DNA from: Escherichia phage RobRod40
DNA: 47,574 nt
Sequence record: OR896835.1
Direction: 5' to 3' (one strand)
A program made the translations under genes and the position numbers. Position 1 is the stretch's first letter; each line of letters starts with the position of its first letter. The notes beneath the pieces were generated by a model. The model was given only the letters and a program-made list of their open reading frames with translations, was not told the DNA's origin and searched no databases. This document shows positions 1 through 29,929 of the stretch, piece by piece.

Positions 1-1572
1 ATGAGTGATTTAATCGTCTGGGATGAACTGACATACGCAGAAAAGATGGCTATCAAGGCCATCTCTGAGCATAGTTTCGAGGGGTTCTTGCGGTGCTTCT
101 TCCAGATAACTCAGGGTGAGAGATTTAAAATGAATTGGCATGCGAAGTACCTTTGCCGCGTCATAGATGAGATTCTTGAGGGTAAGAGAAAGGACACCAT
201 CATAAACGTAGCTCCCGGATCAGCCAAAACAGAACTATTTAGCATTCACTTCCCTGTATATAGCATGATTAAGATTAAGAAGGTCAGGAATCTTAGCTTG
301 TCATTCTCTGACTCATTGGTTAAGCGTAACTCTAAGCGCGTTCGTGACCTGATTAAGTCAAAGGAATTCCAGGAACTATGGCCATGCTCCTTCGGAACGT
401 GCAGGGATGACGAGATTCAGGTACTGGATGAGAATGGTAAAGTTAGGTTTGAATCTATATCTAAGGCGATGGCTGGACAGGTGACGGGAAGTAGGGGTGG
501 ATACATGACTGACGATTATAGTGGCTGCATAATGCTGGATGACCCACTAAAACCTGATGACGCGCTAAGTAATGTAAGAAGAGAGGCTGTCAATATGCTT
601 CTCAAGAACACAATTCGTTCACGTCGAGCTAGCTCAGTAAAGGGAAAGGAAACGCCAATACTTGCCGTGCAGCAAAGACTTCATGTTCTGGACACTAGCA
701 ACTTCATGGAGTCAGGGAAAATGGGCATCAAGTTCGACGTAGTGAAAGTTCCAGCCATAGTCACAGAGGATTACGCCGACACGCTTCCTGAGTGGATCAG
801 GCAACAATTTATTGATGATGTTCTTTCATCACCATTTGTAGAGCGTGATGGTGTTAAGTATTACAGCTACTTTCCGGAAAAGGAGTCAATAGAAGACTTG
901 ATGGCCATGCGGGATGCTGACCCGTATACATTCCTAAGTCAGTACGCTCAAGAACCTGTAGCACTAGGTGGCAACCTAATCAACGTAGATTGGTTCCAGA
1001 GAATTAGCGATACGTTCAGGAACCCAGTTAAGTACGATTATAGATTCATAACTTGCGATACTGCGATGACTACAAAGAGTTATAGTGACTTCTCCGTGCT
1101 TCAGTTGTGGGGATATAAGGATGCTAAGATTTACCTGATAGACCAGCGCAGGGGCAAATGGGAGGCACCAGAGTTGGAAGCTGAACTACTCGATTTTGAG
1201 AAGAAATCAAGGGCAACCAGTCAGTCAGATGGCATCCTTCGAAAAATTATCATCGAGAAGAAAGCTTCTGGTATCGGCCTGATTCAATCGGCAGGTAGGG
1301 TAATGCGAACGCCGATAGAGCCATACGTTCCGGATAACGATAAGCTGACTCGCGTAATGAGCGCATTGCCACAAATTAAAGCTGGTAACGTAGTTCTTCC
1401 AGAATCAGCACCATGGCTAAGCGGATTACTTACGGAGATTGCGGCCTTTACGGCAGACGACTCACATAAGCATGATGACCAAATTGACTGTCTAACAATG
1501 GCGGTAAACCTTGTTCTCAATATAGCAGATGATCCAAAATCAAGAATGCTTCGCCTTGCCGGAATAAAATAG
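1..1572 (+). CDS. terminase large subunit
   Basis: 523-aa ORF starting at window base 1; P-loop-like segment VAPGSAKT near N-terminus; sits directly upstream of portal and (circularly) downstream of terS-like gene and HNH at window end. Confidence 0.8.
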   Translation: MSDLIVWDELTYAEKMAIKAISEHSFEGFLRCFFQITQGERFKMNWHAKYLCRVIDEILEGKRKDTIINVAPGSAKTELFSIHFPVYSMIKIKKVRNLSLSFSDSLVKRNSKRVRDLIKSKEFQELWPCSFGTCRDDEIQVLDENGKVRFESISKAMAGQVTGSRGGYMTDDYSGCIMLDDPLKPDDALSNVRREAVNMLLKNTIRSRRASSVKGKETPILAVQQRLHVLDTSNFMESGKMGIKFDVVKVPAIVTEDYADTLPEWIRQQFIDDVLSSPFVERDGVKYYSYFPEKESIEDLMAMRDADPYTFLSQYAQEPVALGGNLINVDWFQRISDTFRNPVKYDYRFITCDTAMTTKSYSDFSVLQLWGYKDAKIYLIDQRRGKWEAPELEAELLDFEKKSRATSQSDGILRKIIIEKKASGIGLIQSAGRVMRTPIEPYVPDNDKLTRVMSALPQIKAGNVVLPESAPWLSGLLTEIAAFTADDSHKHDDQIDCLTMAVNLVLNIADDPKSRMLRLAGIK

Positions 1573-1635: not shown

Positions 1636-2112
1636 ATGAATTGGGCTGAATTTTTTAGATACGAAGATGGAAATCTGGTAAGGGTTATCACAACCTCAAG
1701 TAGAGCTATTGAGGGCATGGTTGCTGGAAGCTTGCCTGGCAATGGCTATCTGCACATAAGAATAGGCGACAGGCGTGTAAAAAACCATCGCATAATTTGG
1801 GAGATGCACAATGGAAGGATACCAGAAGGGATGGAGATATATCATATCAATCACATAAAGACAGATAACAGGATCGAGAATTTAAGGCTCGTAAGTCACA
1901 AACAGAACCTATCAAACGCATCGCTTAGGTCCGACTCGTCAACTGGTACGAGTGGCGTTAGTTGGAACAGAAACAGGCAGAAGTGGCACGCTTATATAAA
2001 GTCTAACTACAAGAGGATGCACATAGGATTTTTTGATTCCTTTGATAACGCCGTAGCAGCAAGAAAGAAAAAGGAGATTGAACTGGGATTTCATGAGAAT
2101 CACGGAAAATAG
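1636..2112 (+). CDS. HNH homing endonuclease (paralog 1)
   Basis: MNW..F.Y.DG N-terminus, WEMHNG and HINHIKTDNRIENLR motifs; RBS AAGAGGG upstream; shares these motifs with three other ORFs in window. Confidence 0.85.
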   Translation: MNWAEFFRYEDGNLVRVITTSSRAIEGMVAGSLPGNGYLHIRIGDRRVKNHRIIWEMHNGRIPEGMEIYHINHIKTDNRIENLRLVSHKQNLSNASLRSDSSTGTSGVSWNRNRQKWHAYIKSNYKRMHIGFFDSFDNAVAARKKKEIELGFHENHGK

Positions 2113-9769: not shown

Positions 9770-10211
9770 TTTTATACCGAAGGCTAATGGTGGGGTTATT
9801 GAATTTAGCCGCTCCATTTCTGAATGGATAGATAAGGTTGAGTCTGGAGTTGAGGAAGTTGTTGCAGGAACCATTATCAACACAGCTAAGGGGCTGGTAG
9901 ATCAGTCACCAGTTGACACCGGAAGGTTCAAGGCCAACTGGCAAATAACAGCAAACTCCCCGGCTCAACAGTCAGTAATTGACTATGATAAGCTTGGGAC
10001 TGAGACAAAAAGAGCGCTCGCAAGACAGGCCAGGGCAGTAGCTAGATCGAAGGGAACAAAAGTTATTTACATAACAAACAGGCTTGATTACTCAATTCAC
10101 CTTGAGTATGGCGGCTCAGGCCAGGCTCCAAACGGCATCATTAGGATTGTTCAAATGAGGCTTGGTAGATACTTCCAGGAAGCTATAGAGGAGGCTAAGC
10201 GTGCACTATGA
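9762..10211 (+). CDS. putative neck / tail completion protein
   Basis: ATG at 9762 overlapping upstream stop; track ORF 9585..10211 has implausible N-terminal extension; position-based call. Confidence 0.4.
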   Translation: MASFIPKANGGVIEFSRSISEWIDKVESGVEEVVAGTIINTAKGLVDQSPVDTGRFKANWQITANSPAQQSVIDYDKLGTETKRALARQARAVARSKGTKVIYITNRLDYSIHLEYGGSGQAPNGIIRIVQMRLGRYFQEAIEEAKRAL

Positions 10212-10602
10212 ATTATCTATAGCAGCCAGAAAATATGTTAATGATTTGCTGGTGAGCAACTTCCCTGTCAGATATCCAGTATCCTGGGAAAATGTTTCTT
10301 TCACTCCTCCAGCAGATGGCTCTATCTGGCTAAAGTATGACTATATCGAGGTTGATACCGTAACCTACGGACTTAGCAGGAAGTGCAAATACTATGTAGG
10401 AATGGTGCAGGTTTCTGTTTTCTTTAGCCCTGGTACTGGCATTGACAAGCCGAGACAAATCGCTAATCAATTGGCAGAATCTATCGTTGATGGTACAATG
10501 CTTGACAGCGGGACCATTTATGAGTCTGGAGTTGTTAACCCGGTTATCAAATCCAAATCTGGGTGGTTTATCCCGGTTCATTTTTATGTTCGTCTAGACT
10601 AG
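10201..10602 (+). CDS. putative tail terminator-like protein
   Basis: GTG start preceded by GGAGG; overlaps upstream stop; position before major tail gene. Confidence 0.4.
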   Translation: MHYELSIAARKYVNDLLVSNFPVRYPVSWENVSFTPPADGSIWLKYDYIEVDTVTYGLSRKCKYYVGMVQVSVFFSPGTGIDKPRQIANQLAESIVDGTMLDSGTIYESGVVNPVIKSKSGWFIPVHFYVRLD

Positions 10603-10610
10603 GAACTAGC

Positions 10611-11096
10611 ATGAAAGATTTCTTAAATTCTCTTTACGATTATCGCGATGGAAAGATTTACAAGAAGGGCGGTGATAAACCATGTGGTTACGGTAAGACA
10701 AATGGCTACGTTCAAACATACGTTTCAAAGACTGGTAAGCGATATGTTCATAGATTGATCTGGGAAATGCATAATGGTGAAATTGCATATGGAATGCAGA
10801 TAGATCACATTAATGGTGTTAGGGATGATAATCGAATTGAGAATTTAAGATGCGTGACCGTAACTGATAACAGAAGAAATGCTGGAACCAGGTATCGCTC
10901 ACGTAGATTTCCTGGAGTTAATGGAGTAAACTACAACAAGCGCGATGATCTTTGGCATGCAATTATTTCTGACAAAGGAAGAGCAAGGAGTCTTGGTCAT
11001 TATAAGAGTTTTGTCTCAGCTTGCGAAGCAAGGATTGTCGCTGAAGTATTATTGGGATATCACGCTGGTCACGCAATGCGGGATAGCGTTTATTAA
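10611..11096 (+). CDS. HNH homing endonuclease (paralog 2)
   Basis: ATG at 10611 after AGGA; HRLIWEMHNG and IDHINGVRDDNRIENLR motifs; inserted between tail-completion and major tail genes. Confidence 0.85.
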   Translation: MKDFLNSLYDYRDGKIYKKGGDKPCGYGKTNGYVQTYVSKTGKRYVHRLIWEMHNGEIAYGMQIDHINGVRDDNRIENLRCVTVTDNRRNAGTRYRSRRFPGVNGVNYNKRDDLWHAIISDKGRARSLGHYKSFVSACEARIVAEVLLGYHAGHAMRDSVY

Positions 11097-11105
11097 TCTA
11101 ACTTA

Positions 11106-11780
11106 TTGAATTGGAGGTGTATTATTGCCCATCTCAGCAATGGCACGCAGGTCTTCGTAGAAGGCTCTCGCGGAGCTGCAATTGACGTAACTGCAATTTC
11201 TAACTCAGTTACCCCTGTTTTAACTGTATCTGACGCATCTGGATTGGTTGTTGGTGATTACCTTCTTTTCACCTCTTCTGCCTCCACGCTTCTGGCTGAT
11301 AAGCAAGTTCGCGTAACTGCAATCACTGGTACGTCAGTAACTGTTGAAGGTATTGATACCTCTAGCACTACAAAGTTCCCAGCCGGTTTAACTGGTGAGG
11401 TTGTTAAAATCACCTCTTGGTTCGAAGTTCCGTGTGTTCAGGACGTATCTACTGATGGCGGCGAACAGCAGTTCGTTAACTTCCAGTGTTTGTCCGATGA
11501 CCGTGAACAGCAGATTCCGACTTATAAATCTGCCGTAACGAATACCTTCACCTTTGCTCACGAGTACACCAACCCGGTCTATCCGGTCCTGCGTAACTAC
11601 GATGAGTCAGGTCAGGTTGTCGCGATTCGCCTGTTCGTACCTCGAGCTAGCGAAATGCGTTTGCAGTCCGGCACTATCGCTTTCAATGACACCCCCACCA
11701 TTGGTGTTAACGAAATCGAAACGGTATCCATCGCAGTATCCATTCGTGGCCGCCTGTCCTCTGTGGCAGCTGAAGTTTAA
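11106..11780 (+). CDS. major tail (tube) protein
   Basis: ~220 aa; strong terminator immediately downstream; position before chaperone and tape measure; start uncertain (no in-frame ATG/GTG near GGAGG at 11113-11117). Confidence 0.6.
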   Translation: MNWRCIIAHLSNGTQVFVEGSRGAAIDVTAISNSVTPVLTVSDASGLVVGDYLLFTSSASTLLADKQVRVTAITGTSVTVEGIDTSSTTKFPAGLTGEVVKITSWFEVPCVQDVSTDGGEQQFVNFQCLSDDREQQIPTYKSAVTNTFTFAHEYTNPVYPVLRNYDESGQVVAIRLFVPRASEMRLQSGTIAFNDTPTIGVNEIETVSIAVSIRGRLSSVAAEV

Positions 11781-11787
11781 AACATAA

Positions 11788-11809
11788 ACCCTCTTCGGAG
11801 GGTTTTTTA
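11788..11809 (+). terminator. rho-independent terminator after major tail gene
   Basis: ACCCTC-ttcg-GAGGGT hairpin then TTTTTT. Confidence 0.8.
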
Positions 11810-11813
11810 TTGC

Positions 11814-11857
11814 ATAGCACTTTTTGCTAAAGCACTTATTCAACTTTGATGTATAGT
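11814..11857 (+). promoter_or_regulatory. conserved promoter-like module (ATAGCAC-ttt-TTGCTAAA, 22 bp, TATAGT)
   Basis: Directly after major-tail terminator; followed by TACTTCATCGAAACGA leader; precedes lipoprotein gene. Confidence 0.6.
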
Positions 11858-11890
11858 TACTTCATCGAAACGAAATGAGAGATTAAAGAA

Positions 11891-12277
11891 ATGAAAGCAA
11901 TCATCGCAATTATGGCAACACTGCTACTTGCTGGCTGTAACAGCGATAAGGTTAAGACACTTAATGTTGATCTGGCTTCAAATGAATGCAAGAACATCGT
12001 ATACAACGCGACGGTTAACAATGAGGCATTTACTAGGCTTTCATTCAAATACCCAGAACTTAAAGATTCCGTTATGTACGTGGCCCACATTGAGTGCACT
12101 AAATCTGTTAACAATTTTACCCGTGGTGTTGTAATTGAACACACCACAACATTGGCAAAGGTATCAAAGCCTAGTGACGCTTCAATCGCGATGGTTTATA
12201 CTAAGATCTATAGTTTAGAGGCTCTCGCTAGTATGGTTGGCGAGAAACTAGCTTACTCACGCGTTGTTATGAAATAA
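11891..12277 (+). CDS. predicted lipoprotein inserted in tail module
   Basis: N-terminal signal peptide with lipobox LLAGC; own promoter-like module upstream. Confidence 0.65.
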   Translation: MKAIIAIMATLLLAGCNSDKVKTLNVDLASNECKNIVYNATVNNEAFTRLSFKYPELKDSVMYVAHIECTKSVNNFTRGVVIEHTTTLAKVSKPSDASIAMVYTKIYSLEALASMVGEKLAYSRVVMK

Positions 12278-12295
12278 AATAGAGGATAAAACGAG

Positions 12296-12610
12296 ATGGC
12301 AAAGTTCAAACTTTCACTGGCGGCACTGCCAGACTTCAAGCTCCCAGTAAAATTTAAGCTGGCTAACGACCAGGATGTAGAGGTTGTTTTTACAGTTAAG
12401 CACAAGAAGACCTCTGAGCTTCAGGAGCTACTACAGAAAGAAGACCTGAGCACTAAAGAATTGATTATGGCAATCGCCTCTGATTGGGATCTGGAAGAAG
12501 AATTTAATGAAGAAAACGTCATTGAGTTTGCTGATTTATTCCCGTCATCCACAGTTGCGCTAACAACTGCTTACATGCAAGCATTGGCTGGGCAGCGAGT
12601 AAAAAACTAA
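12296..12610 (+). CDS. tail assembly chaperone (gpG-like)
   Basis: 104-aa acidic protein immediately upstream of tape measure; ends with slippery A_AAA_AAC before stop. Confidence 0.7.
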   Translation: MAKFKLSLAALPDFKLPVKFKLANDQDVEVVFTVKHKKTSELQELLQKEDLSTKELIMAIASDWDLEEEFNEENVIEFADLFPSSTVALTTAYMQALAGQRVKN

Positions 12611-12930
12611 AACGAGCGGTGTATCTACAGTACCAGTCAGAGCCAACAGATGCCGAACTGGAAGCTATTGGGATGCGCCGCTCTGATTACGAAGACGAAG
12701 AACCTGAGGTTTTACACTTCGACGAAAACATGATGAAAGCGTGGGACATTTATTGTTCAATGGCTACACAATGGAGGGTTGGAGCTAACGGAGCTACGGG
12801 TCTCGATTACAACGTGCTAAATTTCCTCTTTAGAGTGTATAATGTCTCAGAAGAAGAATTGGTGCTCAGCGATTTACGCATCCTTGAAGCTAAGGCTCTA
12901 GAGATGATGGATAACCTGAGAAAAAAATAA
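12296..12930 (+). CDS. tail assembly chaperone frameshift fusion (gpGT-like), predicted -1 shift at 12601-12607
   Basis: Downstream ORF (track 12619..12930) is in the -1 frame relative to G-like ORF and remains open upstream through the slippery site; conserved lambda-like G/GT arrangement. Confidence 0.6.
12601..12607 (+). other. predicted -1 programmed ribosomal frameshift slippery heptamer A_AAA_AAC
   Basis: XXXYYYZ heptamer just before G-like stop; -1 frame continues into T-like ORF. Confidence 0.6.
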
Positions 12931-28530: not shown

Positions 28531-29453
28531 TAGTCTAGTAATTCACTTGCCTTGTATATTCGCTTTCTTATGCCTGACTTGAAAAAATTATCATCATTTG
28601 GTATTACAACATCAAGATTACGATCGTCAGCAACGGCAAGTAAATCAAAAGCGTGGCGAGTACAAGCGATGCGTAACTTGTAGTTTCTAAGCGCGTAAGC
28701 AACCATTTCCATGTTGTAGCAGGAGTGGCAAACAAGTACGCAGCGGTTGCCAGTAGCAAGATGAGCGCGAATACCATCAATCCAATTATCGACCAGATAA
28801 GCGTACTCATCATCCTTAAATGAACCAATAACAGAAACAGATTGGCGAGTATAATCTTTTGCAGCATAACTAACATTCCCCTCTTCATTGATAAACATTA
28901 CATTGCACATTTCTTCTGATATACCGTCACTATAAGCCATAAAGCACGGTACTGCGTGGATTAGTTCTCCTGACTTTGCCCTGCCAACATCAAAACCGAA
29001 CTCACTATAAATACCCTCGTATGTACTGAGCGGCGTTGATTCTACTCTTTCCGTCCTTTCCATTATCTCTAAGCATCTTTCGTGGTCAATCTGAGCGCCC
29101 ATTTTGTAGATCTGAGTTCTTGATGCTTGCTTGTTTGCTTTAACTATAACCTCAATTGGTGTTAAGTTCAGCCAGTCACCAAGCAAATTTACTGAATCGG
29201 CGAAGGACGATCCAGTGCACTTCATGACCCATCCTATACCGGAGTCACTTCCGCATTTCGAACAAACTGCCGCGCCATTTCCTTTTTCACTGCCTATTTC
29301 GTCGGTAAATCTGAATCTGTCAGTGCCAAAGCAGTATGGGCATGGTCCGTGCTTCTTACTTAGGTGCCTATCATTCCAACCAAGCTCCTTTGCATAAAAT
29401 GATTTCCACAATCCGGCCATCTTAGGTATAACTTCATTCTTATCGTAACTCAT
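28530..29453 (-). CDS. putative DNA primase (zinc-finger containing)
   Basis: CPYCFG...CSKCG zinc-binding motif near N-terminus; position in replication block. Confidence 0.5.
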   Translation of the reverse strand: MSYDKNEVIPKMAGLWKSFYAKELGWNDRHLSKKHGPCPYCFGTDRFRFTDEIGSEKGNGAAVCSKCGSDSGIGWVMKCTGSSFADSVNLLGDWLNLTPIEVIVKANKQASRTQIYKMGAQIDHERCLEIMERTERVESTPLSTYEGIYSEFGFDVGRAKSGELIHAVPCFMAYSDGISEEMCNVMFINEEGNVSYAAKDYTRQSVSVIGSFKDDEYAYLVDNWIDGIRAHLATGNRCVLVCHSCYNMEMVAYALRNYKLRIACTRHAFDLLAVADDRNLDVVIPNDDNFFKSGIRKRIYKASELLD

Positions 29454-29929
29454 TTGCTTAACCCGTGATTTTCGTGAAAGTTGTATTTTCTCTCTGCTTC
29501 AATTCTTACTTTATACGCCTGCTCTGGAGTATCGAAGTTCCCAAGGTGTAGCTGCTTACCGTCAACCTTGATGTGAGCCTTAAATTTTCCGTGATTTAGC
29601 TTTGCCACTCCACAATAACCAGTTGTTGATAAAACGCTAAGCTTGCAATTTCTTGAGTTACCTTGATTTGTTGTTACTCTTAGGTTTTCTATTCTGTTAT
29701 CTAATTTGTTATGGTTTATATGATCAATGTAGTCGCCATTTTGAAGTTCTCCATTAAACATCTCCCACACAACTCTATGTACATAAGTCCTAAAGCCATT
29801 AATAGACACTTTGTAATAGCCAGATGTAGATAGTGAGTTGCACTCATCGCCAACCTTAACACGTCTTGCAGTGCTAATCTTCCAATGCAATTTGCCATCT
29901 ACATAGTAAAAATAATCATGCCAGTTCAT
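29450..29929 (-). CDS. HNH homing endonuclease (paralog 3)
   Basis: MNWHDYFYYVDGKL, HRVVWEMFNG, IDHINHNKLDNRIENLR motifs; GGAGAG RBS. Confidence 0.85.
   Translation of the reverse strand: MNWHDYFYYVDGKLHWKISTARRVKVGDECNSLSTSGYYKVSINGFRTYVHRVVWEMFNGELQNGDYIDHINHNKLDNRIENLRVTTNQGNSRNCKLSVLSTTGYCGVAKLNHGKFKAHIKVDGKQLHLGNFDTPEQAYKVRIEAERKYNFHENHGLSK

Follow-up and report, generated by a model that had tools for sequence, protein, structure and literature searches.

The locus considered here raises the question of where translation of the major tail tube gene of a coliphage begins. The window, i.e. the whole stretch of 47,574 nt from Escherichia phage RobRod40 (OR896835.1) that was analysed, is an Rtp-like coliphage of the Drexlerviridae (T1/Rtp-like), and its open reading frame (ORF) at 11106-11780 matches the Phage_tail_3 tail tube family over the entire profile (Pfam PF08813, E=4.5e-68, 228.5 bits at a cutoff of 24.2, profile positions 1-165 of 165). 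This major tail tube gene has no ATG or GTG adjoining its Shine-Dalgarno (SD) sequence. Its start region reads TAT TAA(11094) TCT AAC TTA TTG(11106) AAT TGG AGG TGT ATT(11121) ATT(11124) GCC CAT CTC AGC AAT GGC, and on re-reading every coordinate that a sequence-only reading had assigned to the GGAGG (11113-11117), the two ATT codons and the TTG proved correct.

Scanning the frame from the stop codon at 11094, the only candidates near the 5' end are TTG 11106, ATT 11121 and ATT 11124, and the later in-frame candidates are TTG 11244 (residue 40, no SD), ATG 11655 (residue 177) and GTG 11763. The earlier claim that the first in-frame ATG or GTG lies far downstream thus holds; TTG 11244 had not been mentioned in it. 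We rejected TTG 11244 as a start: it is without an SD and would remove 40 residues conserved by purifying selection. The spacing from GGAGG is good for ATT 11124 (6 nt) and too close for ATT 11121 (3 nt). The leader is A/U-rich, and the upstream stop lies at most 27 nt from the AUU (27 nt in the window). In the window, the SD and the start are partly buried in predicted local mRNA structure, with a mean probability of being unpaired of approximately 0.3. Elsewhere in the window, a search for a second copy of the motif gave just one chance-level match with 3 mismatches. The features of the region are collected in the table.

Table. Features at and around the start of the tail tube gene; positions are those of the window.
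Feature	Position	Strand	Remarks
Tail terminator gene	10201-10602	+	Pfam Phage_tail_terminator_5, E=2e-20; left neighbour
Free-standing HNH endonuclease gene	10611-11096	+	161 aa; ATG at 10611, stop TAA 11094-11096; Pfam HNH_3, E=5.8e-21
In-frame stop TAA	11094-11096	+	closes the tail tube frame upstream; is also the stop of the HNH ORF
TTG	11106-11108	+	sole canonical in-frame codon upstream; 5' of GGAGG, without SD, not conserved
Invariant translation-initiation block TTGGAGGTGTATTATTGC	11111-11128	+	18 nt; same in 8 distinct genomes
SD GGAGGTG	11113-11119	+	7 bp complementary to the 16S rRNA 3' end; GGAGG core 11113-11117
In-frame ATT, first of tandem pair	11121	+	3 nt from GGAGG, 1 nt from the extended GGAGGUG
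Proposed AUU start codon	11124-11126	+	6 nt past GGAGG; aligned with the ATG of orthologs
Tail tube coding sequence as redefined	11124-11780	+	218 codons plus stop; length equals that of ATG-type orthologs
Out-of-frame (+1) TTG overlapping the ATT (ATTG)	11125-11160	+	7 nt past GGAGG; 11-codon ORF to TAG 11158-11160
Intrinsic terminator	11786-11812	+	hairpin 11786-11805 and T-run; directly after the tail tube gene

Comparison with related phages suggests which of these codons is used. In the records of AugustePiccard, Rtp, OzMSK, IME253 and others, the junction reads GAC TAA CAA AAG GAA AAA TAC ATG GCC CAT CTC AGC AAT GGC, and the annotated ATG of more than 80 relatives falls precisely on ATT 11124 in the alignment. 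BLAST breakpoints against an IME253-type genome lie at the same place: homology stops at window position 10601 and resumes exactly at 11124. The 218-aa orthologs begin MAHLSNGTQVFVEG, and among the 120 best homologs in a collection of 5.8 billion proteins, all but five clusters have an M(A)HLxNG start. The five exceptional clusters start M[N/I]WRCIIAHLSNGT, which is the GGAGG/ATT-ATT allele called from the upstream TTG. None of the ATG-type homologs examined has an N-terminal extension. The tail tube protein of the window is up to 99.5% identical to that of IME253 and only 64% identical to that of phiEB49. ATG-type tail tube genes (rtp33 of Rtp, gp41 of T1; Phage_tail_3) and the gene in the window are alike in protein, length from the aligned start, gene order and 3' terminator; the MM01 record annotates a terminator at the equivalent position, and 3' of the tail tube gene follow a Phage_TAC_4/DUF1799 chaperone pair and then the tape measure gene. 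They differ in the intergenic region, which is TAACAAAAGGAAAAATAC-ATG in the ATG-type relatives and TAA...TTGGAGGTGTATT-ATT in the window.

The ATT allele is present in at least seven other genomes. Phage records containing the exact motif are those of vB_EcoS_MM01, DTL and phiEB49 (n=3), and six SRA/ENA contigs contain it, of which L137 and L142 have the HNH gene and L138/L139 and L140/L141 lack it. With the window, this makes eight distinct genomes, which comprise isolates and metagenomes from Germany, the USA, an industrial fermenter, activated sludge and SRA assemblies. MM01 is from horse dung in Germany and DTL is an isolate from an industrial fermenter, both without the HNH gene; phiEB49 is from wastewater in the USA and has an HNH gene directly upstream (71% nucleotide identity). 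In IMG/VR, an exact-motif scan recovered only DTL and phiEB49, and the 8 loci recovered with the tail tube protein were without exception of known types. A metagenome scan with GGAGGTGTATTANNGCNCA was discarded as too permissive, giving at least 120 matches with no tail tube homolog among those retrieved.

The block TTGGAGGTGTATTATTGC is invariant in all eight genomes, and both its flanks vary: upstream, 5 of 16 columns are invariant, and downstream the same is true for 4 of 20 third codon positions as opposed to 22 of 38 first and second positions. The codons after the ATT vary synonymously (Ser as AGC/TCA/AGT, Leu as CTC/TTA/CTT), with the amino acids kept. Because this synonymous variation reflects selection at the protein level directly after the ATT, translation must enter the frame at or before 11127. 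An invariant block amid varying flanks also excludes the sequencing error or indel that had been offered as an alternative, i.e. an assembly in which the true sequence at 11124-11126 is ATG. A single G-to-T difference separates ATT 11124 from the orthologous ATG, as such an error would require; against this, the ATT ATT block is the same in eight genomes from separate sources that differ at neighbouring synonymous sites, and it is the whole intergenic region, not one base, that differs from the ATG allele. We regard the probability of this explanation as virtually nil.

Two of the eight genomes are particularly informative. In DTL the region reads TAA ATT AAC TCA TTT ATT TGG AGG TGT ATT ATT and in phiEB49 TAA CTT GTT ACT TGG AGG TGT ATT ATT, so that between the in-frame stop and the ATT codons neither genome contains any in-frame ATG, GTG or TTG. 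Both are cultured, plaque-forming and viable phages. It follows that TTG 11106, whose position is occupied by TTT in DTL, cannot be the common start and that the shared block must support non-canonical initiation. The sequence-only reading had treated this TTG, from which the MM01 record starts the gene, as a candidate on a par with the ATT codons. A start there would yield a protein of 224 aa with an MNWRCI extension and the predicted peptide CIIAHLSNGTQVFVEGSR, would place GGAGG inside the coding sequence, and would depend on SD-independent initiation or on termination-coupled reinitiation 9 nt past the HNH stop. It has in its favour that it is the sole canonical in-frame codon near the 5' end, that an equivalent is present in six of the eight ATT-allele genomes, always 4-9 nt after the upstream stop, and that one dataset (Hecht et al.) ranks UUG intrinsically above AUU. 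The TTG has no upstream SD, however; the strong SD comes after it and from there cannot place the UUG in the P site; the TTG is absent from DTL and phiEB49, which have the same block; the codon that follows it varies radically (AAT for Asn or ATT for Ile) next to an invariant block; and no ATG-type homolog examined has an N-terminal extension to match. Parity between the two candidates is thus lost, and we consider initiation at TTG 11106 distinctly unlikely, although coupled reinitiation at this codon could contribute in this genome.

We suggest instead that translation probably starts at AUU 11124 behind the strong SD, which is also the best interpretation of the original observation that no canonical start stands beside the SD, given that ATT 11124 occupies the position of the ATG in orthologs and that DTL and phiEB49 are without a canonical codon. 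In this model, the 7-bp SD GGAGGUG (11113-11119) would anchor a 30S subunit that is either newly recruited or has just completed termination at TAA 11094-11096; anchoring in the A/U-rich leader would put AUU 11124 in the P site, where the initiator tRNA would read AUU as fMet. The predicted product is the 218-aa M-A-H-L-S-N-G... protein that relatives make from ATG, with the N-terminus (M)AHLSNGTQVFVEGSR.

This model can be compared with the two established cases of AUU initiation in E. coli, infC and pcnB (PMC3592434). At the level of sequence, everything expected of an AUU-initiated gene of this type appears to be in place: a usable canonical in-frame start is wholly absent in DTL and phiEB49, and the window has only the SD-less TTG 11106; the AUU lies at a functional distance from the SD, with a 6-nt gap after GGAGG; and it is homologous to the AUG of the orthologs and followed by codons under protein-level selection. 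Like the gene in the window, infC and pcnB have an AUU at proper SD spacing in place of AUG, and infC resembles it further in that its AUU lies a few nucleotides past an upstream stop, in an A/U-rich context with translational coupling (PMC3592434). In contrast, infC and pcnB encode low-abundance regulatory or enzymatic proteins whose expression the AUU limits or autoregulates, whereas the protein encoded here is among the most abundant in the virion. The gene in the window also differs in its exceptionally strong SD, its tandem ATT codons, the overlapping out-of-frame UUG, and in that its AUU start is a predicted one.

How efficient such a start would be depends on which measurements are applied. 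Osterman et al. found AUU to be 6-8-fold below AUG, or 4-fold below in the infC context, and its output to be raised approximately 2-fold by translational coupling and approximately 3-fold by an A/U-rich enhancer (PMC3592434); under these figures, a strong SD could restore adequate output. According to Hecht et al., AUU gives 1-2% and UUG 10-100% of AUG, and by these figures the AUU should lose out to the out-of-frame UUG 11125, whose spacing of 7 nt is just as good. Such an outcome is hard to reconcile with a protein of which each virion needs hundreds of copies, and efficiency matters because the tail tube protein is a major virion band in T1-like phages; the T1-like proteomics study from which this is known deals with ATG-type phages only (PMC4070988). 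Our literature searches found no N-terminal, proteomic or ribosome-profiling data for MM01, DTL, phiEB49 or this phage, and those on ATT/AUU start codons in combination with phages returned nothing on phage structural genes. Moreover, the SD and the start codon alone do not account for the invariance of the 6-nt spacer TGTATT. Because of the competing UUG, the partial occlusion of the SD, the invariant spacer and the abundance of the product, we hold initiation at AUU 11124 to be likely rather than close to certain.

The same UUG opens the way to recoding. Translation might start at UUG 11125, or elsewhere, and reach the tail tube frame by a frame shift; alternatively, the N-terminus could come from further upstream, by removal of an intron or by readthrough of the stop codon of the upstream gene. 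UUG 11125 has an ideal SD spacing and the +1 ORF that it opens is found in all ATT-allele genomes (11 codons in Rtp-like members, 19 in phiEB49), and in the window, MM01, DTL and phiEB49 the tail gene shares its frame with the upstream TAA. The +1 peptide, however, differs between genomes in sequence and length, the first 11 codons contain no conserved slippery sequence and the genomes share no slippery heptamer. With respect to RNA processing, a search of 10100-12000 against Rfam returned no group I or group II intron or other relevant RNA family (E<=1), and only 8 nt separate the tail terminator stop from the HNH ATG. Readthrough is opposed by the HNH stop being out of frame with the tail gene in L137 and L142, and by its products, which would be HNH-tube or terminator-tube fusions and are implausible given that the tube orthologs are all approximately 218 aa. 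Taken together, we judge recoding or RNA processing to be very improbable.

A different question is why an AUU would be used. The ATT could be a deliberate throttle, an idea raised in the sequence-only reading; the output of tail tube protein would then be reduced, or would respond to IF3, ppGpp or temperature, in comparison with ATG-type phages. This proposal is compatible with a start at AUU 11124 and differs only on the reason for it. The precedents of AUU-limited expression in infC and pcnB speak for it, as does the possibility that the overlapping UUG 11125 could divert ribosomes; AUU starts are also described as being discriminated against by IF3 and as competing poorly under nutrient limitation, ppGpp and low temperature (PMC5499595). 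On the other hand, the ATT allele also has a stronger SD, with GGAGGUG in place of AAGGA and a predicted SD:anti-SD duplex of -13.7 kcal/mol as compared with -5.6 kcal/mol in the ATG-type relatives, and the product forms a major virion band in T1-like phages (PMC4070988). The strengthening of the SD together with the change to ATT points to compensation, not reduction, and we therefore think a throttle improbable and favor a model in which the weak AUU codon of the tail tube gene would be offset by the much stronger SD.

The ATT allele may be linked to the gene immediately upstream. The sequence-only reading contains no mention of the HNH endonuclease cassette, which ends exactly at the proposed start codon. 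The HNH ORF separates the tail terminator gene from the tail tube gene. It is an insertion when compared with related phages, more than 80 of which match in two pieces that leave it out; homology to these HNH-less relatives ends at the tail terminator stop codon (BLAST breakpoint at window position 10601). Accordingly, the region has matches of 80-95% identity in 88 phage records, all of them short of full length because the HNH ORF is missing there, and the best match to positions 10200-12300 in an August 2025 phage collection, AugustePiccard, has 90.8% identity over 75% of the query, with no full-length match in that collection. All four HNH genes seen at this site go with the ATT allele; the ATG-type records, more than 80 in number, have none there. 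Encoded by the window, phiEB49, L137 and L142, the four proteins are orthologous (72-77% identity, approximately 160 aa), and their genes occupy the same site. An HNH alignment scan of IMG/VR gave 80 loci, of which only that of phiEB49 has a tail tube gene downstream; the remaining loci are paralogs of at most 48% identity at other sites.

In two lineages, the right boundary of the cassette coincides with the start codon, as seen by comparing the window with L009 and phiEB49 with L223. L223, an HNH-less relative of phiEB49, has its own initiation region, TAATTAAGGAGATTTAC-ATG, and homology resumes exactly at the A of the ATT/ATG. These boundaries imply that one and the same block, arriving with the cassette, took the place of the resident SD and of the third start-codon base in both lineages. 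We therefore take the block to be the right-hand end of a site-specific free-standing HNH cassette that has rewritten the start region in at least two lineages. After the ATT, phiEB49 and the window share GCCCATCTC, where HNH-less L223 has GCTCACCTT; the shared sequence hints at a short co-conversion tract. The left junctions are less uniform: it is TAG-gaactagc-ATG in the window and L137 and TAA-aaggttgcaa-ATG in L142, and phiEB49 has a left spacer of 70 nt (L008 1251-1320) with a terminator-like hairpin, AAAGCCCCTCCTGGGGCTTTTGTT, and a GAGGGTG SD of its own, as against 8-10 nt in the others. With differing left spacers and the same right block, the cassettes share their right end and differ in their left ends. 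The block persists without the HNH ORF in four ATT-allele genomes (MM01, DTL, L138 and L140), in which the junction TAA ATT AAC TYA TTG resembles the 3' end of the HNH gene in the window, TAA TCT AAC TTA TTG. This resemblance fits a precise loss of the ORF or, alternatively, an uninvaded donor allele.

This arrangement is reminiscent of the free-standing homing endonucleases of phage T4 (seg/mob; 'intronless homing'). As in T4, the HNH ORF sits precisely between conserved genes and is present in some close relatives and missing from others, divergent lineages have orthologs at one and the same site, and flanking sequence is replaced along with the ORF. Unlike T4-style cassettes, the 3' end of the cassette in the window would supply the SD and a non-canonical start to an essential gene, and endonuclease activity, target site and homing are putative here. 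Extending the analogy, the cassette might be a selfish element that brings its own replacement ribosome-binding site and start codon, its rewritten SD, spacer and G-to-T change destroying a putative target. That target would span the resident SD-ATG, the AUU would be the price of immunity and the strong SD would compensate for it; MM01, DTL, L138 and L140 could then be immune 'scars' left after loss of the endonuclease. We regard this scenario as a whole as improbable; if true, it would explain why even the spacer is invariant. More generally, a link of the AUU start to a mobile element is plausible but unproven.

The window (47.6 kb) contains at least four HNH genes; paralogs at 1636-2112 (+), 29450-29929 (-) and 47088-47573 (+) are 38-44% identical to the HNH protein encoded at 10611-11096. 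The idea that an ATT start is a general property of HNH cassettes was rejected, since the genes downstream of the checkable paralogs (the first two) start with an ordinary ATG, and the ATT is thus specific to the cassette at 10611-11096.

An AUU start at 11124 would account for three mis-annotations in public records. In MM01 (MK373793; L004, 1511-2185) the coding sequence is called from the TTG (675 nt, 224 aa). In DTL (RefSeq NC_047893; L007, 1790-2182) it is called from a downstream ATG (393 nt, 130 aa) and in phiEB49 (RefSeq NC_023743; L008, 1921-2475) it comprises 555 nt (184 aa), both being N-terminally truncated; the DTL paper lists the gene simply as a 393-nt ORF 40. The extended and truncated coding sequences arise because gene callers do not allow ATT, and callers that exclude it will truncate or extend other such genes. 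Apparently, therefore, this is an AUU-initiated major structural gene that has gone unrecognised so far and has repeatedly been mis-annotated. To our knowledge, AUU starts have otherwise been confirmed in E. coli only for the low-abundance infC and pcnB. If confirmed, the tail tube gene would be a natural example of an AUU start behind an E. coli phage protein that is among the most abundant in the virion. Published estimates of AUU efficiency lie an order of magnitude apart (1-2% versus 12-25% of AUG), and the compact 18-nt natural context of this start would be informative about the degree to which a weak codon is rescued by a strong SD and an A/U-rich leader. The locus would likewise be an instance in which the translation signals of an essential gene were rewritten by an adjacent homing-endonuclease cassette.

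Three further observations concern other parts of the window. Between the tail tube and chaperone genes, an ORF at 11891-12277 (+) begins MKAIIAIMATLLLAGCNSD, a signal peptide of the lipoprotein type whose lipobox is LAGC. The ORF is a homolog of rtp34 with no Pfam match, its equivalent is annotated as much shorter (249 nt) in OzMSK and DTL, and it may encode a surface or superinfection-exclusion lipoprotein in the tail module. The tail assembly chaperone pair lies at 12296-12610 (Phage_TAC_4) and 12619-12930 (DUF1799), both on the + strand, and for the equivalent ORFs of OzMSK the record gives a joint product made by programmed frameshifting. Finally, a 523-aa ORF at 1-1572 (+) has its ATG at base 1 and an HNH ORF reaches the last bases, so that the window looks like a complete genome re-oriented to a gene start.
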